UHGV virus genome: UHGV-0081096 | DNA from: a virus | Length of the DNA: 43,004 nucleotides | Reading direction: 5' to 3' (one strand) | Shown here: in pieces, positions 1,221 to 43,004 of the stretch | How positions within the stretch are numbered: position 1 is the first letter of the stretch | Layout: each line of letters begins with the position of its first letter | Made by a program: the position numbers and the translations under genes | Notes under the pieces: generated by a model | The model's database searches: none | Told to the model about the DNA's origin: nothing | What the model saw: only the letters and a program-made list of their open reading frames with translations

Positions 1221-3101
1221 ATGGCACAATTTAGTGGAAGCATAGGAATAAGCACAGGGCAGACAGATAAGTATTCGTTATTATTGGATGTTTCTGAAAA
1301 GTCTTATTCAATTGAAAATAACACATCTCAAGTTGAGTGGTGGGTTGGTATCCGTTCGAACACTGCATACCATAATCACTATGGTTTAGCAGAAACTTAT
1401 ACTGTAGTAATAAATGGTTCAACTGTACACAGTGCGGTTCATAAACCTACAGTTGGCAATGGTCAGACTGTATGGGTGGCAAGTGGTACTGCTACTGTTG
1501 GTCATAATGCAGATGGTTCTAAAACTGTTGCAGTAAGCGCATCATTTAATAATGCAGACAGAGGAACATATTTACCAACGACAGGATCATGCAGTGGTAG
1601 TTTAAAGTTAACGACAATACCACGTGCAACTACTCCATCAATTGATAAACAGAGTTTAGATTGTGGTAGTGCAATTAAGATTAGTGGTACAAGCGCATCA
1701 AGCAACTTTTCACATAAAGTTTATGTAACTTGGAACGGAACAAAAACACAAATAGGAACAATAGCTAGTGGTACAACATCCCCTAGCTTTTCTTATACCA
1801 TTCCGACAGATTGGGAAAAGAATATTCCTGATTCAACAAGTGGTATTGCTACATTTACATTAGAAACAATCAGTGGTTCAACATCAGTTGGTTCTAAAAC
1901 AGTAAATGCGACAATTAAAGTAAGAAGTGGTGTCGTTCCTAGTATCGGAACTGTATCAATATCTGATACAAATTCAATTTGCGCAGGAATAGGTCAATAT
2001 GTCCAGAGTCAATCAAAGTTAAAATTCTCGATTGCTACAAGTGGTAATCAAGGCTCAACGATCACATCAGTGTCGACTAAATTTAATGGCCAAACATACA
2101 GTGGTAGCACATTTACAACTCAAGCGATTCAAAATAGTGGTACGCTATCATACACAATCACAGTTATAGATTCACGTGGTAGAACTGCTACTAAGAGTGG
2201 TTCAATAAATGTAGTTGCATACAATCCACCTAGTTTAACAAATGTAAGTGCAAAACGTGCTAACTCAAGTTATGCAATTGATGAATCAAGTGGAACGTAT
2301 GCTTTATTGCATTTTAAAGTCGGTTTTACAAGTTTATCAAATAAGAATGTGACATCATTCTATATTCAGTATCGAGCAAGTGGTGCTACTAGTTGGACAA
2401 AGATTAATTCGTGGGCTAACAATTACACATTGAATCAAGATTACAAAGCAGGTAATTTATTTACCTCGACAACGACAACGTATGAAATTGCATTCGGTGT
2501 TAAAGATAAATTCATGAGTGATTATTCTTGGCAAATCGTTACAGTTACACCAACTTATACATTGATTAATTTTGGTAAAGATGGAAAATCATTAACTTTT
2601 TTTGGACAAGATGGTAACAACGCTAACCGACTAACTGTTAATGGCGATTTAGCAATTAATTCAGTCAAAGAAAATACATCTTCAACTAAGCTATTAGTTA
2701 ACGATGGTAACACTGTTATGTATCGTGATTGGAATAAATTGGTAAGCTCAATCAAGAGCGCGATGTATCCAGTTGGTTCTGTGTATATCACTTACAACAA
2801 TGTCAACCCTGGTACATTCCTAGGCGGAACATGGGAGCGCTTTGGGCAAGGCCGTACATTAGTTGGTGAAGGAACTGGTAATGATGGTAGTACAAGTATG
2901 TCTTTTACGGCTAATGACACAGGCGGAGAGTACATTCATTCTTTGCTACGTGACGAGATAGGATATATATATTATGGTGCTTTGCTTAACAGTAATGGTA
3001 ATCAAATAGGTGTTCATGACCATGATGACAAAATGAAAAAAGCAAAGATACCATTATTGCAACCATATATCACCGTCTACTTTTGGCACAGAATTAAATA
3101 G
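1221..3101 (+). CDS. tail fibre / receptor-binding protein (DUF859-like body, gp10-C-like C-terminus); expression locus of the shufflon
   Basis: 626 aa, Ser/Thr-rich beta protein; ends YPVGSVYIT...NPGTFLGGTWERFGQGRTLVG...QPYITVYFW; last 67 aa homologous to three downstream cassettes. Confidence 0.85.
   Translation: MAQFSGSIGISTGQTDKYSLLLDVSEKSYSIENNTSQVEWWVGIRSNTAYHNHYGLAETYTVVINGSTVHSAVHKPTVGNGQTVWVASGTATVGHNADGSKTVAVSASFNNADRGTYLPTTGSCSGSLKLTTIPRATTPSIDKQSLDCGSAIKISGTSASSNFSHKVYVTWNGTKTQIGTIASGTTSPSFSYTIPTDWEKNIPDSTSGIATFTLETISGSTSVGSKTVNATIKVRSGVVPSIGTVSISDTNSICAGIGQYVQSQSKLKFSIATSGNQGSTITSVSTKFNGQTYSGSTFTTQAIQNSGTLSYTITVIDSRGRTATKSGSINVVAYNPPSLTNVSAKRANSSYAIDESSGTYALLHFKVGFTSLSNKNVTSFYIQYRASGATSWTKINSWANNYTLNQDYKAGNLFTSTTTTYEIAFGVKDKFMSDYSWQIVTVTPTYTLINFGKDGKSLTFFGQDGNNANRLTVNGDLAINSVKENTSSTKLLVNDGNTVMYRDWNKLVSSIKSAMYPVGSVYITYNNVNPGTFLGGTWERFGQGRTLVGEGTGNDGSTSMSFTANDTGGEYIHSLLRDEIGYIYYGALLNSNGNQIGVHDHDDKMKKAKIPLLQPYITVYFWHRIK
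2886..2912 (+). repeat. shufflon recombination site A (core GTATGTC 2896-2902)
   Basis: GGTAGTACAA-GTATGTC-TTTTACGGCT inside the tail fibre gene at codons S-M-S-F-T. Confidence 0.8.
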
Positions 3102-3123
3102 TTAAGGTATGTCATTTACTGCT
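3097..3123 (+). repeat. shufflon recombination site B (core 3107-3113)
   Basis: AATAGTTAAG-GTATGTC-ATTTACTGCT. Confidence 0.8.
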
Positions 3124-3330
3124 AACAATACAGGTGGTAAATATTACTCGGATGTTCTTAATAGCTCGGACAAACAATATGGTTTAAGAAAGAACGACGG
3201 CCCAACATATTACACCGAACGTACTATTGTTCGTAGTTCTGATGTAGGAAATGGTAGCGGAGAACGTAGTGCAAAAGTATCTTTAGTGCAACCATACATT
3301 ACAGTACATTTTTGGAAAATGACGGCTTAA
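3109..3330 (+). CDS. silent tail-fibre C-terminal cassette B
   Basis: MSFTANNTGGKY...VQPYITVHFWKMTA; same first and last motifs as the expressed C-terminus. Confidence 0.85.
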   Translation: MSFTANNTGGKYYSDVLNSSDKQYGLRKNDGPTYYTERTIVRSSDVGNGSGERSAKVSLVQPYITVHFWKMTA

Positions 3331-3331
3331 T

Positions 3332-3604
3332 TTATGCGGTCCTTCTCCAAAAGAAAACAACTATGTATGGTTGTACATTATCAATAGTACGGTTATCAGT
3401 CCAATTCAATCGCACTTGACGTGATATAAAAGAACTAGTTTGAATTCCATATCCATTTGGAATTACTGAGGTTCGGTCATATGCATTATTAGCTGCTCCG
3501 TCTGGTCTACCTGCATAAAAATAATCTCCATCCCAACCAAACGAAGTGACATGATAGTGAGTATTCTTGTATTTTCCATCACTTGAATTTGGTGTAAATG
3601 ACAT
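3332..3604 (-). CDS. silent tail-fibre C-terminal cassette C (inverted)
   Basis: MSFTPNSSDGKY...VQPYIVVFFWRRTA. Confidence 0.85.
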   Translation of the reverse strand: MSFTPNSSDGKYKNTHYHVTSFGWDGDYFYAGRPDGAANNAYDRTSVIPNGYGIQTSSFISRQVRLNWTDNRTIDNVQPYIVVFFWRRTA

Positions 3605-3616
3605 ACCTATGCAGTA
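3590..3616 (-). repeat. shufflon recombination site C (core 3600-3606)
   Basis: minus strand TACTGCATAG-GTATGTC-ATTTACACCA; abuts the stop codon of cassette D. Confidence 0.75.
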
Positions 3617-3882
3617 CGTCTCCAAAAGTATACAGTGATATAAGGTTGGATGTTGTTATGAGATGCATCCCCACCTACATTACCAGTGCCTGGTCCAAAT
3701 AATTTCGTATCTGAAGTATATTGTTTCCAACTGTTAGGTAATGCTACAGTCCATTTCGGAGCATTTACTTGTGGGTTAGACGTAGTATTTTGAATATATA
3801 CCGCATGTTTATGGTTCGGCATTTCATCTACAGTTAACTTATGTTTATATTCACCACCAGTCGAATTAGCAGTAAAGGACAT
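3607..3882 (-). CDS. silent tail-fibre C-terminal cassette D (inverted)
   Basis: MSFTANSTGGEYKHKLTVDEMPNHKH...HNNIQPYITVYFWRRTA. Confidence 0.85.
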   Translation of the reverse strand: MSFTANSTGGEYKHKLTVDEMPNHKHAVYIQNTTSNPQVNAPKWTVALPNSWKQYTSDTKLFGPGTGNVGGDASHNNIQPYITVYFWRRTA

Positions 3883-3894
3883 ACATTGACTACT
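3868..3894 (-). repeat. shufflon recombination site D (core 3878-3884)
   Basis: minus strand AGTAGTCAAT-GTATGTC-CTTTACTGCT; arms 7/10 inverted-symmetric; overlaps the recombinase stop codon. Confidence 0.8.
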
Positions 3895-4783
3895 TGTAAT
3901 AATCACAAAGCAACTCTACACATTTTCGCTTTAATTCCATTTGCGGATGCACATAAATATTCATTGTGATTGATACGTTTGAATGGCCAAGTAATTCACT
4001 CAATGATTTATAATCACAACCACATTCAATACATCTTGTTGCAAATGTATGTCGTAATGCATGGAATTTAAGATGTGGTAGGTCAAGTTCTTTTAAGACT
4101 CTATTGTAGTAAAGTCTGTATTTGTTAGGTTCTATTGGTTTATCTCGATTCGTTAATACATAGTTATCTTCTTCGCCTTGAAGAAGTATTGCATAGTGCA
4201 TTATCCATGTATTTAACGGAATCATTCGAGTACTGGAACGTGATTTAGGTGGTGTTATTGAAAGATGGCTACCATCTTCTTTTGTGTATGTGCGTATCAT
4301 GGTTTTGCTTATATTTAATAACTTGGTTTGAGTGTTTATATCAGACCATTTTAAAGCGCACAGTTCACCTATGCGTATGCCTGTATGGATACACAGTAGG
4401 ATTCCAAAGTTTTTGTTGTTAATCTCAGATTGGAGGTGATTAATCAATGTTATTTGATTTTCTTTTTCAAAAATCTCTACCGCCTTAGATGGATGGTACG
4501 GTAGTTGAATATCGACTTTGAATGGAAGTGTAAATTTTAAAATTTGAATAATGTCTTTGGCATATTTGAATGATATACCACCTTTTCCATCTTTACGGCC
4601 ATTTTCAAGTTTTTGAAGAATAAACTCTTGCAGAATATCGTTGTTCAAATCCTCAATCTGAAAATTGCCAAGTTTTGGCAAAATGTGATTGTGGATCACA
4701 TTACAATAATTTGTGTAAGTGCTGTATTTTAGATAGATTTTCTTTTCCTTTAACCAGGATGTTAATTTGTCAGAATATAGCAT
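3890..4783 (-). CDS. tyrosine recombinase, putative shufflon invertase
   Basis: 297 aa; GIRIGE (R), PKS (K), HALRHTFA (HxxR), LLGHS, IYVH (Y); no arm-binding N-terminus; GAGGT RBS; adjacent to the cassettes. Confidence 0.92.
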   Translation of the reverse strand: MLYSDKLTSWLKEKKIYLKYSTYTNYCNVIHNHILPKLGNFQIEDLNNDILQEFILQKLENGRKDGKGGISFKYAKDIIQILKFTLPFKVDIQLPYHPSKAVEIFEKENQITLINHLQSEINNKNFGILLCIHTGIRIGELCALKWSDINTQTKLLNISKTMIRTYTKEDGSHLSITPPKSRSSTRMIPLNTWIMHYAILLQGEEDNYVLTNRDKPIEPNKYRLYYNRVLKELDLPHLKFHALRHTFATRCIECGCDYKSLSELLGHSNVSITMNIYVHPQMELKRKCVELLCDYYK

Positions 4784-7536: not shown

Positions 7537-7576
7537 GTATGCCTATATAATAATAAGGAGGAGAATTTATGAATCT

Positions 7577-7726
7577 GTGGCATAAAACTTTGGTACAGTG
7601 GCATATGAAATGGAATATTTTTTTAGATTTTACTAAATAAAAAGTAGTCATATAGGTGAAAATATGAGAAAATTAGAGTAGTTAGAGGAGAAAGGGATAT
7701 TGACTTATTTACCATTTTAAAGGTAA
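7577..7726. other. putative attP (arm-type repeats and core)
   Basis: direct repeats GTGGCATA (7577, 7598), TGGTACA (7591), TGGAATA (7611); inverted TTACC-N8-GGTAA (7709-7726); between lysin and integrase. Confidence 0.45.
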
Positions 7727-7729
7727 TGA

Positions 7730-8632
7730 TTTAATACCGAGAAACGAATCAAAGAAAGTACTTACAACGCTCAAACTAGTATTTTACAAAGATGGATTGA
7801 TATTATCGGTAAAGATATGTTGATAAAAAAGGTAACAACAAGCAGTTTAGAGTATGCAATGGAATTAATGATTCGTAAAACAAATTCTAATTCCGCAGCA
7901 AATTATCTTAACAGATTAAATAAGATGTTTAGGTTTGCGGTTCAAAAAGGATATTTAGAAGTCAACCCGTGTGCACAATTAGAAGTTGTTAAAAATCCAA
8001 ACGAAAAAAGAAATGAAATGAAGTATTGGACTTTGGATCAGTTCAATTTATTCATTCCATTCGTAAAAAATCCTATGTACAATCTATTATTTAAAAATCA
8101 GTTTTACAACGGAACAAGAATAGGAGAAGCACTTGCTTTAACTTGGGAAGATATAGATTTTGAGAACAAAACAATCACGATCAACAAGACTTGGGCGAAA
8201 GATTTGCATCAAGTTACTACTCCAAAGACTAACAACAGTTACCGAACAATTACGATTCCAAGTTTCTTATGTGATAATTTCAAAGCTTATAAGGAATTAT
8301 TAGACGTTCCAGATAAATCGTTTATATTCGGTATAGATATGCCAATATCAACTTCGACAATCCGATCAAGAATGAGAAAAGCTATTATGGAAGCCAACCA
8401 AAGCAACGAAGAACAAATACCTACTATTCGTATACATGATTTAAGACATTCGTGTGCTTCGTACATGATTGGCAATATGGTAAGAGATGGAAGCTCTAAT
8501 TTTAGCTTGTATGATGTTGCAAAGCGTTTAGGAGACAATCTAAACACTGTATTAAGTGTTTATGCTCATTGGCTACCTCAAGCAGATAAAGGAATCGCAA
8601 AATTCATGGATAAAGACAATGCACTAGATTAA
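7730..8632 (+). CDS. int: phage integrase (tyrosine family), apparently 5'-truncated
   Basis: GTRIGE, TPKT, HDLRHS, VYAH motifs; frame open upstream of ATG 7817 through KRIKESTY to a stop at 7727; no convincing start/RBS. Confidence 0.8.
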   Translation, partial: FNTEKRIKESTYNAQTSILQRWIDIIGKDMLIKKVTTSSLEYAMELMIRKTNSNSAANYLNRLNKMFRFAVQKGYLEVNPCAQLEVVKNPNEKRNEMKYWTLDQFNLFIPFVKNPMYNLLFKNQFYNGTRIGEALALTWEDIDFENKTITINKTWAKDLHQVTTPKTNNSYRTITIPSFLCDNFKAYKELLDVPDKSFIFGIDMPISTSTIRSRMRKAIMEANQSNEEQIPTIRIHDLRHSCASYMIGNMVRDGSSNFSLYDVAKRLGDNLNTVLSVYAHWLPQADKGIAKFMDKDNALD

Positions 8633-10280: not shown

Positions 10281-10503
10281 TGACACAAACAGAAAGAATT
10301 ATCAAGCACCTAAAAGAGCATGGATCTATCACTCCTTTAGAAGCTATTAAAGAGTATGGAATCACTCGTTTAGGTGCAAGGATTTGGGATATGACATAGA
10401 AACTCAAACTGAAACTTCAAAAAATCGGTTTGGTGATAAGACATCATATGCCAAGTACGTATTAAAAGGAGGGGTAAAAAATGAATCTGTATCAAGACAC
10501 TGA
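10280..10503 (+). pseudogene. frameshifted winged-HTH protein
   Basis: MTQTERIIKHLKEHGSITPLEA...RLGARIWD stops at 10399; expected continuation LGYDIETQTETSKNRFG...YAKYVL lies in the -1 frame. Confidence 0.7.
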
Positions 10504-11152
10504 AAAATACATTGTCGAAAAGTATGGGAGCCATGAAGAATGGCTGAAAAAGCGTGGTCGTGGTATTGGTGGCTCGGATGCAGCGTGCTTCATGGATTTG
10601 AATCCATGGAAAACATTGAATCAGTTATGGCATGACAAGAAGTTTGGATCACAACAAATTACAAATGATGCGATTGAATATGGGAATACCGCAGAACCTT
10701 GTTTAAGGACATTGTTCCAAGCTAAGCATCCAGAGTTGGATGTTCAGTATGTTGATAACGTTACATTGGTTTCTAAGGAGCATGAGTTTCTAAGATACAG
10801 TCCTGATGGATTGATTTACAACAAAGAAACAGGCGAACGTGGAATCTTAGAAATCAAAACATCTAAGATAGTCAATTCTCAGAGTTTGCAGAAATGGGGA
10901 AGTAAGGGAAACGAAACAGTTCCCGATAACTACTATTGCCAAACATTAGAGGGCCTAATAGTAACGGACTTTGACTTCGTGATCTACTGTGCAGAACTAA
11001 GATTTGCAGATGGTGATGCACGAATCATAGAGCGTTCATATCGAAAAGAAGAAGCTTTAGACAGTATGAACGATCTAAAACAAGCAATGATAGAAAAATG
11101 GGATAGGTACTTTATCCAAGATGTAGAACCACCTATCACATTGTCTATATAA
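10481..11152 (+). CDS. YqaJ-like (lambda-exonuclease family) recombination nuclease
   Basis: EWLKKRGRGIGGSDA, SPDG, ILEIKT, YYCQ motifs. Confidence 0.9.
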   Translation: MNLYQDTEKYIVEKYGSHEEWLKKRGRGIGGSDAACFMDLNPWKTLNQLWHDKKFGSQQITNDAIEYGNTAEPCLRTLFQAKHPELDVQYVDNVTLVSKEHEFLRYSPDGLIYNKETGERGILEIKTSKIVNSQSLQKWGSKGNETVPDNYYCQTLEGLIVTDFDFVIYCAELRFADGDARIIERSYRKEEALDSMNDLKQAMIEKWDRYFIQDVEPPITLSI

Positions 11153-12038: not shown

Positions 12039-12872
12039 ATGCTACAAAACAACATCACAAAGAAACCTCAGACAACATTTGCAAATTATGTAAAATCTGA
12101 TGCAGTACTTGCAAATATTTCAAAAACCTTAGGTAGTGCAACGAGAGGTAAAAAATTCGTGGCATCCATCATTAGTGCAGTAAATACAAATAAACAATTA
12201 CAGGAATGTGATTTTGCAACAATTGTAAGTGCTGGTATTGTGGGTGATTCTTTGAATTTATCACCAAGTCCACAGTTAGGACATTACTACATGGTTCCGT
12301 TCAGAGATACTAAGAACAACCGTACAGTTGCTACATTTCAACTTGGATATAAAGGTTATCTTCAATTAGCTATTCGTTCAGGTCAATACAAGAAAATCAA
12401 TGTTGTAGCAGTTAAAGATGGGGAATTATTAAGCTATAACCCATTTACAGAAGACATTGAAGTAAGAGCTATTACAGACCCATTAGAACGTGAGAAAGCT
12501 CCTACAATTGGATATTACGGAATGTTTGAATTGACTAACGGATTTACTAAATCAATGTACTGGTCAAAAGAAACAATGGAAGAACACGCTCAGAAATACT
12601 CAAAAGGGTATGCAGCACATAAAGGATATACATTCTGGGAAAAAGATTTTGACGGAATGGCTTTCAAAACTATCTTACGTCAATTGATTTCTAAATGGGG
12701 AATCATGAGTATTGAAATGCAAACTGCAATTGAAACGGATATGTCATTTAAAGATGATGTAAGTTCTCAACCTGTTTATTTCGATAATGAAGAAACTCAA
12801 CAGATCGAACAAACTCAAGTGTATCAAGAACAAACATATCAGGAACAACCCGAAGGTGTAAGTCTTGTATAA
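12039..12872 (+). CDS. recT: RecT-family single-strand annealing protein
   Basis: LGHYYMVPF, FQLGYKGYLQLAIRSGQY, MAFKTILR motifs. Confidence 0.92.
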   Translation: MLQNNITKKPQTTFANYVKSDAVLANISKTLGSATRGKKFVASIISAVNTNKQLQECDFATIVSAGIVGDSLNLSPSPQLGHYYMVPFRDTKNNRTVATFQLGYKGYLQLAIRSGQYKKINVVAVKDGELLSYNPFTEDIEVRAITDPLEREKAPTIGYYGMFELTNGFTKSMYWSKETMEEHAQKYSKGYAAHKGYTFWEKDFDGMAFKTILRQLISKWGIMSIEMQTAIETDMSFKDDVSSQPVYFDNEETQQIEQTQVYQEQTYQEQPEGVSLV

Positions 12873-16785: not shown

Positions 16786-17598
16786 ATGAGTGAATATCAA
16801 AAGCGAGTGAAAATTGAATTATACAATGATCATTTTGAAAATGCTAAAAGATATCAAATCCCACGTGCCCAACTAATCATCGCAGATATTCCATATAACA
16901 TTGGAAAAAATGCATATGGATCTAGAAGTGATTGGTATGTGGGGGGGGACAATAAAAATGGAGAATCAAAGAAAGCAAATAGTGAATTCTTTGATACGGA
17001 TAAAGATTTTAAAATCTATAACTTCTTCAATTTTTGTACTCGATTATTAAAGAAAGAGCCGAAAGAAAAGGGGCAAGCTCCATGCATGATTATCTTTTGT
17101 AGCTGGCAACAATTGAATGAAATCACAGAATATTCAAAGCAATTTGGCTTTAACCATACGCAGCCATTATTCTTTGTGAAAAAATCATCGTCGCAGGTGT
17201 TGAAGGCAAACATGCGAATTGTTGGAGCTACTGAATGTGCTTTAGTGTTGTGGCGTGATAAATTGCCAAAATTTAGAAATGGTAGACAAATCGGAGAAGA
17301 TGGAAAGCCAATTAAAGGCACTGGGAGAATGATTAAGGATTGGTTTGAATTCGAACATGATGGTAATAACATTCCTAAAATTCATCCAACACAAAAACCG
17401 GTAAATCTATTAAAGCAACTAATAGAGATTTATACGGATGAAGGCGATGTAGTGATTGATCCAGTAGCTGGCAGTTGTTCAACGCTTAGAGCATGCGCAG
17501 AGCTTAAAAGAAGTTGTTACGGGTTTGAAATCAAAAAGAATTTCTATAAAGATGCAAAAGCAAAGATGCTATCGAATGTAGAAGTTCAATTGTTTTAA
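16786..17598 (+). CDS. orphan N6-adenine/N4-cytosine DNA methyltransferase (beta class)
   Basis: DIPY catalytic motif, HPTQKP, DPVAGSCST SAM-binding motif. Confidence 0.88.
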   Translation: MSEYQKRVKIELYNDHFENAKRYQIPRAQLIIADIPYNIGKNAYGSRSDWYVGGDNKNGESKKANSEFFDTDKDFKIYNFFNFCTRLLKKEPKEKGQAPCMIIFCSWQQLNEITEYSKQFGFNHTQPLFFVKKSSSQVLKANMRIVGATECALVLWRDKLPKFRNGRQIGEDGKPIKGTGRMIKDWFEFEHDGNNIPKIHPTQKPVNLLKQLIEIYTDEGDVVIDPVAGSCSTLRACAELKRSCYGFEIKKNFYKDAKAKMLSNVEVQLF

Positions 17599-37685: not shown

Positions 37686-39211
37686 TGTATGCATTCGTAA
37701 ATACAGTGAACAGTGGCATTGTCGGTACTGATCTACCGACAGAAGCCATGTCATACAATGGTGTATATTTAGAAAATGAAATTGATGGTTATCGAACACT
37801 TTCTGTAACAGGTCGTGAGTTAATGGAATCAGAAGTTACGGATCAAGAAATTGATGGAATGGATGGCTCTTATTACAGATATAAAACTACACCTGCAAGA
37901 ACGATTACTGTTAAATATCAATTGAGAGCTAGAGGAAGCAGAGAATTTCGTGATGCCTTCAATAAGATGAATAAATTGTTGAGTGGTGAACAAGTTAAGG
38001 TCATCTTCAATGATGAAAGCGATAAGTATTTCATTGGAACAAAGACTTCAAATACACAGGTTGATGGCGGAAGCAACAACGTTATAGGTGAAATCGAAAT
38101 CTATTGCTCAGATCCACGCAAATATTCGACAACAGAAAAAGAGTTCGTTGCTACTGACGGTGTTCTAAATATTGTAAATGAAGGTACTGTACCAGTTAGT
38201 ATTGATTATGATGTTCAGACAACATCTGAAACAGGATATATTGGTTTGGTATCTGAAGAAGGAATTATGCAGTATGGCAAAATTGAAGAATTGGATGGCG
38301 AGACGTACAAACAAAGTGAATGGTTAGCATCTATTGATGATTTTTATAAATGTTCAGATGATATTGGCGGTACTGATGTAATGCATCCAAGTTATGGAAC
38401 AAATGGAACGCTAGCCGAACACACTTGGTTTGATAAAAAGTTTATTGGATTAGGTTCGGTTGGAACAAAAAAAGGAAATGCAAACGGTGGATTAAGAACA
38501 TTGGTATTACCTGCAGATTCAAGCGGAGATACTAGCGGTGCTAAAAACTTTTATTGTTGGTTTCATTTATGTTTTTATGCGGGTCTTATGGGCCAAACCG
38601 GTGAAATGTGTATCAACTTCTTGACCGAAGACGATAAATTGATTTGTGGTTGTAATTGGTACAAGACAGATGCAATTGGTAATACAGGTCATTATGAAAT
38701 ATGGGCAAATGGTAAAATATTGAAAAATTGGGAGTTTACAACATCTCATTTACAAGCTCAAAACCCTTTTTACTATAAATGGGGTAGTTGTGATGTTTTA
38801 AAAGAAGGTGCAAATATTCGATTCTTCTTTTGGGCGAGATACTACAACTTCTACATCCCAGAGATTGAAAACATGAAGTGTGCAAAGATTCAAATTGCTT
38901 TCAAACAATGGGGAGATAGAAGTGGTAACAAAGTGATGTCAATGATGGGATTTGATGTCATTGATTTTGAAAAAATGAATGTTGAGAAATGGAAGGACAT
39001 CCCTAATAGGTATCCTACTGGAACAAATATCACAATTGATGGAAAATCATCTCATGTTTATGTGAATGGCATGGTTAGACCAGAGGACGAAGTGTTAGGT
39101 ACTCAATACTTTAAAGCACCAGTTGGAACATCTGAAATTAAGGTAACGTGTTCAGAATGGGCTAAATCTCAACCAACAGTTAAAGCTAAGATAAGGGAGG
39201 CATGGTTATAA
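37685..39211 (+). CDS. distal tail protein (Dit) with internal insertion
   Basis: YRTLSVTGRE, IFNDE, C.DP.KYS; 508 aa. Confidence 0.8.
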   Translation: MYAFVNTVNSGIVGTDLPTEAMSYNGVYLENEIDGYRTLSVTGRELMESEVTDQEIDGMDGSYYRYKTTPARTITVKYQLRARGSREFRDAFNKMNKLLSGEQVKVIFNDESDKYFIGTKTSNTQVDGGSNNVIGEIEIYCSDPRKYSTTEKEFVATDGVLNIVNEGTVPVSIDYDVQTTSETGYIGLVSEEGIMQYGKIEELDGETYKQSEWLASIDDFYKCSDDIGGTDVMHPSYGTNGTLAEHTWFDKKFIGLGSVGTKKGNANGGLRTLVLPADSSGDTSGAKNFYCWFHLCFYAGLMGQTGEMCINFLTEDDKLICGCNWYKTDAIGNTGHYEIWANGKILKNWEFTTSHLQAQNPFYYKWGSCDVLKEGANIRFFFWARYYNFYIPEIENMKCAKIQIAFKQWGDRSGNKVMSMMGFDVIDFEKMNVEKWKDIPNRYPTGTNITIDGKSSHVYVNGMVRPEDEVLGTQYFKAPVGTSEIKVTCSEWAKSQPTVKAKIREAWL

Positions 39212-42200
39212 TGGAACAAATTAGAATCGCGGTATTAAGTCCTTATAACAAGGTATTAACATTCCTTGATAACACTGTGCCTAGTGCTATGCATTATTTT
39301 GATGAAATCTTGCATACTTATTTAAAAGGCTCATCTTACACATTTGAATTTACTACAATGACTGCACATGATGATGCAGTCTTTTTAGTTGAAGGTAATA
39401 AGCTAAGTTTTAAACGCAAAGACAAAGGCTATCATTTGACAATCATGTCAGTAGAAAAAGGTGGTGACACAACATCTGTTACCGCCTATGGCCTTTGCTT
39501 AGAATTAACGAATGAATATGTGGATGCATATAAAGCGCCTAGAGCAATGTCATTTGTTGAGTATATTAATGCGTATGGATTTGAACGTTCTTTCGTTATT
39601 GGTACAAACGAAGTATCAAATAAGAAGATTACACACGAATGGACAGGTACAGATACCGTATTAGCTCGATTGTATTCAATCGCAAATGTATTCGATGCAG
39701 AATTAGAGTTCGTAACTCAATTAAATGATGATTACTCATTGAAGAATGTTGTACTGAATATTTATCGTGCTCATTCAGATAGTGTTCAAGGGATGGGAAC
39801 AGATAAACGCAGTACGATCTTGAGATACCCAAACAACATTTACGGAATCACTAAAACAAGTGATATTACTGAATTGTATACCGCAATTCGTCCAACAGGA
39901 ACAAATGGATTACAATTGAACTCAATCAGTGGCCGAACTGTTAAGGATTCGAATGGAAATGTTTTGTATAAAGTTCAAGGTAACAATATACTAGCCCCTC
40001 AATCTAGAGACAGATTCCCTTCAACGCTAATCACAAATCATTCAAATGATATGTACGCAGTGCAGATGTGGTCTTATGAAACTGAAAATGTTGAAACCTT
40101 GTATGGTCAAGCGCTAGCACAATTGAAAAAGAACTGTGTCCCTAAAGTTACATACGATGTTGACGCATATATTGATGGTGATATTGGTGATACATTCACG
40201 ATTGAAGATGCAGAGTATTCACCTACTTTATATTTAGAAGCACGAATCACAGAACAAGAGATTTGTTTTACTGATTCAGAAAAGTGCAAGACGATATTTG
40301 ATAACTTTGAAGAAAAACAATCGCAGATTAGTTCGGCTCTTATTTCAGAAATGAACAAGATGATTGAATTGAAAAAGGTTTATGAAGGCTCAATTGTATC
40401 TTCAAATGGAGTTCTGTTTAAGAATGATTCGGATAGCACTAAATTGACCGCATTAGTCAAGGATGATGGTGTTGATATTACATCTAAGTATTCAATCACA
40501 TGGTTCAAGGATGATGTACAAATATCAACAAACCAAACAATCACAGTCAGTGCCTCAGACATATCAGAAAAGGCCGTGTATCGTTTTAAAGCTATGAGTG
40601 GTGAAATACTTAAAGCAAGCGCAGAAGTCACTGTAATGCGATTACAGGACGGTCAGAATGGAACAAGTGCTTATGTGCATATTGCCTATGCCAACAGTTC
40701 AGATGGCCGTGTTGATTTTAGCTTGACGGATTCAAATCGTAAGTTTATTGGTCAGTATTCAGATTCAAAACAGTATGGTTCTGAAGACCCAACTAAGTAC
40801 AGATGGAGTGCAATCAAGGGTGAAGATGGTCAAAGTTTCGTGAGTGCCGAGGAACAATTCTATTATTCTACATCAAAGACTGAATTAATCGGTGGTGAGT
40901 GGTTTGTTGGTAATGTGGTTTATCAAAGTGATAAATTTCTTTGGAAAAGATGGAAATGCACGTATGCTAATCCAAGTGAAATCAAGTATACCAAAGCTAT
41001 TTTTGACAACACTTGGAATGAAATTGATGCAAAGATAGGCGAGATTCATACACAAGTATCAGAAGCTAACAATCAATCGAAAGAAGCAGTCAATAAAGCA
41101 ACACAAGCTCAGACAGATGCAAGTAAAGCGAATGAATTAGCTAATACCGCTAACACTCAATCGAGTGAAGCGAAAAAGTTAGCACAAGAAGCAAATACTA
41201 GTACTGGTAATGCTCAGAAACAGATTGATGCAATTAAAGGTGATATTACTGATTCAAAAAAACAAATTCAAGATGCGGTTGATAAAGCCAATGCAAATGC
41301 GACTGAAATCAATTCAGTAAAAGAAACGTATGCTACAAAAGTTGATTTGACTAATGAATCAAAAACGATTCATGCAGATGTAAGTACTGAGATTGAAAAG
41401 AAGGTCGGTGAGTTGTCGACTACAGTTTCACAAACTTATGCTTCTAAGAGTGCATTGACTCAGATTGAAGGTTCTTTGAATACAAAGATTAAACAAAATG
41501 CCGATTCAATCACTACTCAAGCAAGCTCGATTGAAAAGCTGCAGTCTGATACAACTCAAGCTCAGAAAGATATTACTGATGCAACAAAGAAAGCAACAGA
41601 TGCTCAAGCTCAAGCGGATAAAGCTTTAGGCAACGCTCAGAATGCTCAAACTTTAGCGGATGAAGCTAAAAAGAAAGCAGACAGTGCTCAGACTAATCTA
41701 GACAACGCCAACAAAGAGTTGGCAGATGCTAAAGCTAATCTAGAAACAGTAACCGGTAGAGTTGATGCAAGTGAAACAGAAATAACAAATGCTAAGACTC
41801 GTTTAACTGATGCAGAAACTGCAGTAAAGAAAGCTCAGACAGATGCGACTACTGCTCAATCCAATGCACAGACTGCAATCAATAACGCTAAAACTGCACA
41901 ATCAACTGCAGATACGGCTAAAGCTAATGCAGATAAAGCTCAGAAAGACCTTGCAGAACTAACAAACAAAGTTACTTCAAACACAACTAAAATTGAACAA
42001 AATGCAAAGCAGATTACTATACAGGCAAGTTCAATTACTGAAGTTGGCGATAAAGTTGATGGTGTAAAGGAGGATCTTGCTAACAACTATTATTCTAAAA
42101 CTGAAACTGATGCTCAGATTAAAGTAGCGACTGATGGAATTAAGCTTAGTGTATCTGAATCTTACATCACAAAAGCTGAAGGAAAAGATATTACTAATGC

Positions 42201-42612
42201 TGCTAACAATGCATTAACTAATTCGACACAAGCAAAAAAAGATGCAGAGAGTGCATTAACAAAAGCTCAAGATATTGTAGATAAAGTTAATAGTGGTGAA
42301 CTTGATGGTGAAGATGCGGTAATGCTTTACATTGATTCGAGTAATGGAACAACATTTAAGAATAGTGACGTAGCAACTATTTTTACTGTAAGCATTTATG
42401 TTGGCGGAATAGCAATTACAGATTCTGTAAAACTTAAAGAAGTATTTGGGCAAGGTGCATATTTACAATGGTTAATCAAGCGTTATGGAGAAACAGAATA
42501 TACTAAAATTCCATTAGATGATTCAAGATTAAACGATAATGGATTCATGTTCACGCTTAACGCAAAAGACATAAAATTTAAAGCAGTATTTAACTGTGAA
42601 TTAAATATTTAG
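39211..42612 (+). CDS. tail-associated (Tal/tail spike) protein with long coiled coil
   Basis: follows Dit; YVHIAYANS.DG motif; A/Q/T/K-rich heptads ~41000-42300. Confidence 0.8.
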   Translation: MEQIRIAVLSPYNKVLTFLDNTVPSAMHYFDEILHTYLKGSSYTFEFTTMTAHDDAVFLVEGNKLSFKRKDKGYHLTIMSVEKGGDTTSVTAYGLCLELTNEYVDAYKAPRAMSFVEYINAYGFERSFVIGTNEVSNKKITHEWTGTDTVLARLYSIANVFDAELEFVTQLNDDYSLKNVVLNIYRAHSDSVQGMGTDKRSTILRYPNNIYGITKTSDITELYTAIRPTGTNGLQLNSISGRTVKDSNGNVLYKVQGNNILAPQSRDRFPSTLITNHSNDMYAVQMWSYETENVETLYGQALAQLKKNCVPKVTYDVDAYIDGDIGDTFTIEDAEYSPTLYLEARITEQEICFTDSEKCKTIFDNFEEKQSQISSALISEMNKMIELKKVYEGSIVSSNGVLFKNDSDSTKLTALVKDDGVDITSKYSITWFKDDVQISTNQTITVSASDISEKAVYRFKAMSGEILKASAEVTVMRLQDGQNGTSAYVHIAYANSSDGRVDFSLTDSNRKFIGQYSDSKQYGSEDPTKYRWSAIKGEDGQSFVSAEEQFYYSTSKTELIGGEWFVGNVVYQSDKFLWKRWKCTYANPSEIKYTKAIFDNTWNEIDAKIGEIHTQVSEANNQSKEAVNKATQAQTDASKANELANTANTQSSEAKKLAQEANTSTGNAQKQIDAIKGDITDSKKQIQDAVDKANANATEINSVKETYATKVDLTNESKTIHADVSTEIEKKVGELSTTVSQTYASKSALTQIEGSLNTKIKQNADSITTQASSIEKLQSDTTQAQKDITDATKKATDAQAQADKALGNAQNAQTLADEAKKKADSAQTNLDNANKELADAKANLETVTGRVDASETEITNAKTRLTDAETAVKKAQTDATTAQSNAQTAINNAKTAQSTADTAKANADKAQKDLAELTNKVTSNTTKIEQNAKQITIQASSITEVGDKVDGVKEDLANNYYSKTETDAQIKVATDGIKLSVSESYITKAEGKDITNAANNALTNSTQAKKDAESALTKAQDIVDKVNSGELDGEDAVMLYIDSSNGTTFKNSDVATIFTVSIYVGGIAITDSVKLKEVFGQGAYLQWLIKRYGETEYTKIPLDDSRLNDNGFMFTLNAKDIKFKAVFNCELNI

Positions 42613-42624
42613 GAGGATTTCAAA

Positions 42625-43004
42625 ATGGCAATAAAAGCAGTCAATCAGATTGACGTAATCGACTTAACGGATGGATATTCCGTTGTTTTAACAAATGATA
42701 ACTATACATTCTTAGGCACTACTAGTGCTGTAAACGGTACACAGACAACTACTACACAGGTGATGGCATTATGTGGTAGTGAACAGGTTCCATGTACGGT
42801 AGGAACTATTACATGCCCTACAGGAATTTCAGCAGTTTCTGATGGTAAGACACCAATGCCAACGATCACTATCACTGCAACATCTGCATTAACTAAGAGT
42901 GGTACTATCACTATTCCTATCGTTGTCGATGGTGGCATCACTATTAATAAGACTTTTAGTTACTCAATTGCATTTAAGGGGCAGACAGGGCAGAATGGTA
43001 CAAG
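42625..43004 (+). CDS. 5' part of the minor tail protein continuing at position 1
   Basis: AGGAGG RBS; MAIKAVNQIDVIDLTDGYSVVLTND..., open to the window end. Confidence 0.85.
   Translation, partial: MAIKAVNQIDVIDLTDGYSVVLTNDNYTFLGTTSAVNGTQTTTTQVMALCGSEQVPCTVGTITCPTGISAVSDGKTPMPTITITATSALTKSGTITIPIVVDGGITINKTFSYSIAFKGQTGQNGT

Follow-up and report, generated by a model that had tools for sequence, protein, structure and literature searches.

The tail-tip gene of the virus genome UHGV-0081096 (43,004 bp; this whole analysed stretch is called the window) is followed by three stored versions of its own 3' end and by a gene for a tyrosine recombinase. The locus is read here, with a probability of roughly 0.8, as a Rin-type shufflon in which four alternative C-terminal tips are rearranged at a short site by the adjacent recombinase, with a probable change of receptor. 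The shufflon of the window is real and very probably active. Terminase, portal, head, tail, lysis, and lysogeny genes are all present in the genome, and the last open reading frame (ORF) runs in frame into the first. The window is therefore a complete temperate siphophage genome in circularly permuted form. The two ends (42625-43004 and 1-460) fuse in frame into a single 280-aa tail ORF.

The gene order runs from a constant gene through variable C-terminal cassettes to the recombinase. The repeat GTATGTCnTTTAC starts at +2896, +3107, -3606, and -3884 and nowhere else in the 43,004 bp, where about 0.01 matches are expected by chance. All four matches are cassette heads, and one copy of this short asymmetric repeat lies inside the tail gene. 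The initial annotation had described one site per cassette head, two forward and two reverse, and three standalone variants (B, C, and D) of the tail-gene 3' end; both the sites and the coordinates of the variants were reproduced. The tail ORF matches the Pfam families DUF859 (E 4e-43) and Gp10_C (E 2e-16). The constant part (Rc) consists of four predicted immunoglobulin-like (Ig-like) beta-sandwiches (DUF859) followed by the first half of a T4 gp10-like C-terminal domain. The site splits this Gp10_C domain, whose second half, with the last strand QPYxxVxFW, comes from the cassette in every case, and this is why the cassettes share their last motif. The claim of common first and last motifs around unlike middles also holds, as cassettes A-D are 28-35% identical overall and 14-19% identical in their middles.

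Inversion between inverted sites was then simulated in silico. Twelve arrangements were reachable, all with open fusions of 626, 632, 649, or 650 aa, and the recombinase was intact in every one of them. All four tips can be fused, with B reached after two steps. This agrees with the earlier proposal that C and D would be joined in frame by inversion and B by two inversions.

Relatives were collected as 53 IMG/VR loci found via the recombinase (65-100% identity). Cassettes were counted in 54 sources, the window plus these 53 loci, and two calls ('ab' in L009 and 'bf' in L042) were dropped as false. A total of 163 cassettes was present in 52 of the 54 sources, forming 66 types at 70% identity. 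When only the middles were compared, 34-58 clusters were obtained among 150 distinct cassettes. The first cassette is forward in 47 sources and in frame with the constant-domain motif in 44 of these 47, with 23 different tip types. Ten groups of sources have identical cassette sets; six of them differ in order as inversion predicts, and four are identical. The window (+A+B-C-D) and L013 (+D+B-C-A) are two inversion steps apart, and the latter order is among the 12 predicted arrangements. Likewise, L032 (+A+B-C) is paired with L004 (+C-B-A), and L025 (+E-O) with L028 (+O-E). Permuted order in related phages had been suggested as a check by the initial annotation, and the six groups provide it. 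These comparisons support inversion-driven swapping of the C-terminal tips. Cassette A sits in the silent position beside the recombinase in 13 of its 16 occurrences, and the window is among the few sources with A fused. The arrays in L026, L027, L042, L045, and L047 are larger, with 6-8 cassettes, and contain head-to-head pairs of sites at a spacing of 17-19 bp.

The permuted relatives already contradict a fixed arrangement in which each of B, C, and D is translated from its own ATG into a small separate protein, an explanation that is hardly credible. An ATG does stand at the start of each cassette, and C lies directly after the TAG of D, where translational coupling is possible. However, that ATG belongs to the invariant core, and the cassettes carry only the second half of Gp10_C. 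A Shine-Dalgarno sequence at normal spacing is absent before B, C, and D, whereas one is present before Rc and before the recombinase.

Each site is made of a ~9-bp arm, the 7-bp core GTATGTC, and a second ~9-bp arm. In the first crossover mapping, left contexts were partly defined from left-arm letters, which is circular, and the test was repeated with contexts defined by position. Base -1 was then A at 44/44 Rc sites and T at 44/50 recombinase-side sites, and base +7 was variable at both and tracked the cassette type. Since base -1 goes with position and base +7 with the cassette, the crossover falls within GTATGTC. A variant core, GTATGAC, was found at 23 of the 163 sites, and no locus mixed the two cores. 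This is as expected, because tyrosine recombinases require overlap homology between recombining sites. The right arm nTTTAC is conserved at 94-100%, and the left arm repeats it less faithfully in inverted orientation (symmetry 0.56). This asymmetry would favour inversion over deletion. In all 11 head-to-head cases the spacing between the sites was 17-19 bp, which indicates two arms of about 9 bp. At the synonymous level, the TTT codon and the codons beneath the left arm do not vary in 41 distinct sequences, and the upstream glycine codons do.

Rearranged forms with breakpoints at the repeat were found both in the relatives and in metagenome contigs from public sequencing runs. The latter are contigs of related strains from seven runs, mostly under 95% identical to the window; any one run contained at most 28% of the sampled words of the locus, and runs with small shares were set aside. 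Joints in them were 2895>3107, 2896><3885 (opposite strands), and 3119><3593 (opposite strands). In run X7, the junction of Rc with A was on a 53-nt contig and the head of C was joined to Rc on an 800-nt contig, and flanking contigs of 18.6 kb and 20.2 kb ended at 2902 and 3594. Among 80 contigs found with the tip domain, 15 ended within 170 nt of the Rc site; measured from the first G, the end was at exactly 55 nt in five and exactly 99 nt in four of these 15. Both 55 and 99 are common k-mer sizes, and we read the contigs ending near the Rc site as assembly-graph nodes that begin at the core. The core also stands at the start of genome contig G111:C11 and at the end of G003:C32. The initial annotation had proposed a search for orientation switches exactly at GTATGTC; site-exact joints and breaks were found, in contigs of related strains. 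A shufflon would explain why assemblies of these phages break at the tail locus.

Table 1 Features of the switch locus and other genes of the window.
Feature	Coordinates	Strand	Details and evidence
Tail ORF, constant part plus cassette A	1221-3101	+	626 aa
Rc, constant part of the tail-tip protein, 559 codons	1221..2897	+	DUF859, Gp10_C (Pfam); phrog_372 tail protein; PDB 2FKK; AlphaFold model of relative
Site 1, within the tail gene	2887..2911	+	Left arm 2887-2895, core GTATGTC 2896-2902, right arm 2903-2911
Cassette A, 67 aa, tip fused in the window assembly	2898..3101	+	ATG at 2898
Site 2	3098..3122	+	Core 3107-3113; left arm overlaps stop of cassette A
Cassette B, 73 aa, stored, tail-to-tail with C	3109..3330	+	
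Cassette C, 90 aa, stored	3332..3604	-	Gp10_C E 0.0013
Site 3	3591..3615	-	Core 3600-3606; left arm overlaps last codons and TAG of cassette D
Cassette D, 91 aa, HxH motif, stored	3607..3882	-	Gp10_C E 5e-11
Site 4	3869..3893	-	Core 3878-3884; left arm overlaps recombinase stop
Tyrosine recombinase, 297 aa, putative invertase	3890..4783	-	Phage_int_SAM_3 from residue 6, Phage_integrase; catalytic residues; co-occurrence with sites and cassettes
Lysogeny integrase, 5'-truncated, outside the switch	7817..8632	+	
RecE-like exonuclease	10481-11152	+	
RecT-like annealing protein	12039-12872	+	

The adjacent tyrosine recombinase likely performs the inversions. The catalytic residues R137, K180, H241, R244, H267, and Y277 are all present, and the six are invariant across 16 aligned homologues. 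The enzyme has no N-terminal arm-binding domain; its core-binding SAM domain begins at residue 6, and only 20 residues follow the catalytic Tyr 277 up to its end at residue 297. Its identity with the lysogeny integrase is 26% over 171 aa, and 5 bp separate the recombinase stop codon from the core of site 4. Both statements of the initial annotation, that the recombinase is intact and distinct from the integrase and that it ends on the last site, therefore stand. The site is missing from 15 relatives; 14 of them carry a single tip and lack such a recombinase, 10 of the 14 with more than 4 kb of flank, and the one exception ends at a contig edge.

The enzyme has no relatives at 60% identity or above among annotated phages or plasmids. 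Its distant homologues (32-42% identity) are not beside tail cassettes, and a hidden Markov model of the cassettes matched at 2 of 80 genome loci. Inverted repeats of at least 18 nt bracket 20 of 62 testable homologues, against 2 of 62 in the direct-orientation control. In 18 of these 20, a 7-bp spacer is flanked by symmetric arms (0.79) with the consensus CTyTACGAA. The CTyTAC arms of the chromosomal homologues agree with nTTTAC of the phage sites, and under the chromosomal-arm profile the eight arms of the window sites all rank in the top 0.25-15% of background. The pairing of enzyme and site is thus supported independently by the arms and spacer of the distant homologues. These likenesses suggest that the recombinase descended from chromosomal self-flipping cassettes. 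Candidate self-flipping promoter cassettes, with symmetric repeats and a 7-bp spacer, were seen at L070, L073, L077, L078, L080, L089, L090, and L094, and further candidates at L101, L116, L118, L119, L128, L131, and others. Several of the candidates lie upstream of polysaccharide-synthesis or Tad-pilus genes. Of the 127 extracted neighbours of the distant homologues, 58 were scanned, and several polysaccharide or Tad-pilus genes were among them.

The host family of the phage is inferred to be Erysipelotrichaceae, because the relatives sit in Erysipelotrichaceae genomes and that of G111 is in a prophage. The closest genome matches are in Floccifex sp. (75%), Erysipelotrichaceae bacterium (65%), and Firmicutes bacterium M10-2 (62%). 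A match was found in 9 of 401 genomes of Erysipelotrichaceae, and G111 has a 96% homologue; within the genus of G111, 1 of 12 genomes has a match. The G111 homologue lies in a prophage end followed by chromosomal genes. After the lysin of this locus (L226, G111:C11, 3466-5533), there are Abi-like and NYN-domain genes, and the window differs in sequence there. Genome G003 has two recombinase homologues (69% and 64%) on C26 and C32 (L136 and L143), and the second is split into two matched pieces beside a four-cassette array.

Head inversion does not account for every difference between loci. The tail-to-tail partner of cassette C varies between loci (B, D, G, E, or bc), and such changed partners need another process because head inversion cannot alter this pairing. 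Each of the cassettes B, D, E, and I was seen in the two 3' contexts, and their tail codons and stop tend to go with position. The fixed tips of switch-less phages match cassette middles at 43-85% in 13 of 15 cases, and only 3 of the 15 fixed-tip genes are full-length Rc-like. These patterns point to homologous exchange between the two conserved cassette ends, with the RecE- and RecT-like genes as a candidate route for exchange between phages. Such a slower second tier, probably RecT-assisted, would span the conserved 5' site to the conserved 3' QPY-FW codons and bring in tips from other phages.

The two 3' contexts, impossible by head inversion, also raise the question of whether homologous (RecET) recombination or assembly artefact alone is at work, with the recombinase in another job such as replacing the truncated integrase. 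RecE- and RecT-like genes are present in the window, the integrase (window 7540-8632) is without its N-terminus and has several in-frame stops upstream, and the arrangement of L008 is likely an assembly path error. This explanation is nevertheless very improbable. Homologous exchange would need more than the 7-bp core in which the breakpoints are concentrated, the presence of the recombinase goes with that of sites and cassettes, and members of its family act at sites with the same geometry. In addition, L022 and L042 have a full-length integrase (374 and 368 aa) together with the switch recombinase. The in-frame stops precede the stretch of the window integrase that corresponds to about residue 70 of these two homologues, and the window isolate may be integration-defective, as its integrase is without the N-terminus.

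Under the shufflon reading, natural phase-locked forms can be recognized. L157 and L162 (5170-5720 in each) have a common deletion that runs from the convergent (tail-to-tail) junction into the recombinase gene, and the contigs are not identical; L158 (5160-5500) has a separate deletion into the recombinase. Each has one fused tip, with the deletion at a short shared sequence. A wider picture, put forward tentatively and at somewhat less than even odds, is a two-tier open tip library. Its invertase would have been recruited from the self-flipping chromosomal switches of gut Bacillota and would act within a phage on sites turned asymmetric. Its tip bodies would pass, by exchange between the conserved 5' and 3' ends, among dozens of Erysipelotrichaceae phages, those with fixed tips included, and microhomology deletions would freeze lineages on a single tip. 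If true, the locus would serve as a receptor catalogue for the whole community, natural locked controls included, and inversion bias would be achieved without the extra domain of Rci.

The target of the switch is not the long Tal-like host-specificity fibre of the window (39202-42612, 1136 aa), as could be understood from the initial annotation, but a separate DUF859 and Gp10_C gene. The Gp10_C profile aligns end to end with T4 gp10 residues 444-602 (E 1e-14). Sequence searches of the PDB returned T4 gp10 and its relatives only, with no match to a receptor-binding protein (RBP) of the TP901-1/1358 type or to an H-lectin. The HxH motif is present in 56 of the 66 cassette types and may bind metal, as in related fibre tips. 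The constant part has homologues in 470 Streptococcus phages, and the one in S. thermophilus phage SW32 (E 7e-24) is the gene directly downstream of the antireceptor. The third ORF there is described as the true RBP, built of four beta-sandwiches and a variable head that binds host polysaccharide (PMC9437275). An AlphaFold model of the natural D fusion in a relative has four beta domains within residues 1-442, the first three at high confidence. These match the four beta-sandwiches of the streptococcal RBP and support the RBP reading. In a Foldseek search with the full-length model, the PDB matches were all generic Ig/Fn3 tandems, and the BFVD matches were phage tail proteins.

On the proposed mechanism, the neighbouring tyrosine recombinase would catalyse the inversions. 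Since the core sets the reading frame, any cassette placed behind the constant gene completes the gp10-like domain. The tail-tip protein would be a trimeric RBP, and its variable insertion, often with HxH, would contact the host. A tip swap would likely change the cell-surface receptor bound, and host-range switching is inferred from homology and tip diversity.

Several observations weigh against this reading, and some of them favour an accessory role. The tip region is of low confidence, with a mean pLDDT (predicted local distance difference test) of 54 as a monomer and below 50 in the AlphaFold model. Among solved structures, the closest homologue of the tip is T4 gp10, which has a structural role in the baseplate and does not bind receptors; its fold is reported to be the same as that of gp12 (PMC3004832). 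The separate Tal-like fibre is also present, and homologues are publicly annotated as 'structural protein' or 'baseplate component'. On these grounds, the inversion could be real and the swapped insertion still not decide the receptor: it would adjust a baseplate protein of accessory or structural function, for example in mucus or secondary adhesion, as a decoy, or in stability, and host range would be set by the Tal-like fibre. This alternative is unlikely, though the likeliest of the rivals considered. Position and domain order are those of the streptococcal RBP with its head for binding host polysaccharide (PMC9437275), and middles of 14-19% identity, in 34-58 clusters among 150 distinct cassettes, are as expected of a specificity determinant. 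As a limit on the case for activity, two junctions within one run were seen only in X7, and strain mixture in wastewater may lie behind the related-strain contigs. Only 1-3 cassettes are present in 37 of the 52 sources, and such short arrays may come from deletion between direct sites or from assembly path-skipping.

A phage-encoded DNA methyltransferase gene is also present in the window at 16786-17598. A scan for promoters and terminators gave 8 promoter-like sites against 13 expected, which is at or below chance, and an NCBIfam profile search gave no family above the cut-off.

The findings extend Rin-type host-range switching, as proposed here, to phages of Erysipelotrichaceae. What the locus adds is a mapped crossover core, a shared tip pool, naturally locked variants, and a connection with chromosomal switches that have symmetric sites. 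A single scaffold comes with dozens of natural tips, and these, together with phase-locked phages, make the binding of tips to strains testable. Symmetric chromosomal sites and asymmetric phage sites within one enzyme family offer a handle on how armless tyrosine recombinases avoid deletion, a question that the Rin paper left open (PMC6109161).

Publication of the principle itself goes back to 2018, for prophages of the Gram-positive Bifidobacterium, and searches of an open-licence library turned up no earlier description of such a switch in phages of Erysipelotrichaceae or, more widely, of Firmicutes. Phage tail genes are common targets of inversion (PMC9881135). The Rin shufflon of Bifidobacterium breve and longum prophages was reported with the same layout and read-level inversions, and directionality was raised as a question (PMC6109161); Rin is also found in Eggerthella lenta clade 1 prophages (PMC8778435). 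In both Rin and the window, a constant gene, for an RBP in Rin and for a putative RBP here, lies on one side, an armless tyrosine recombinase on the other, and small dissimilar C-terminal cassettes between them. A short asymmetric repeat heads each cassette, with one copy inside the gene and one right after the stop. The enzyme is separate from the phage integrase, and rearranged forms occur in relatives. Cassettes are dissimilar in both, at 6-30% in Rin against the 28-35% overall and 14-19% in the middles found here. The likeness is one of layout. Unlike Rin, the window phage has a host in Bacillota (Erysipelotrichaceae) and not in Actinomycetota, its site is GTATGTCnTTTAC as opposed to TTCCCTAACCC or ttccgtat, and a conserved last strand is common to its cassettes. 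Its target is DUF859 plus T4 gp10-like, not the TP901-1/1358-like RBP of Rin sensu stricto.

The other known systems are further from the window. R64 Rci is likewise a tyrosine recombinase, with a 7-bp core, a conserved right arm, a variable left arm, and alternative adhesin C-termini. The R64 target, however, is plasmid pilV and not a phage tail gene, and the left arm of the window sites keeps partial symmetry (0.56). The architecture of the R64 sfx site and the extra C-terminal domain of Rci are described in PMC11852207; the window enzyme ends 20 residues past its catalytic tyrosine and is thus without this domain. The label 'Rci-like' in the initial annotation is therefore replaced here, with Rin as the closer precedent. 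An active tail-fibre shufflon was shown in reads for BV01-like Phocaeicola vulgatus phages (PMC13596623, preprint). It is also a multi-cassette switch in a tail gene of a gut temperate phage with an adjoining recombinase, but it differs in its Bacteroidota host, its 10-bp motif TGGGAGAACT, and its three cassettes used in both orientations. Finally, inversion switches tail-fibre C-termini in Mu Gin, P1 Cin, and p15B Min as well (PMC6109161); these are serine invertases, whereas the window enzyme is a tyrosine recombinase of the Phage_integrase family.

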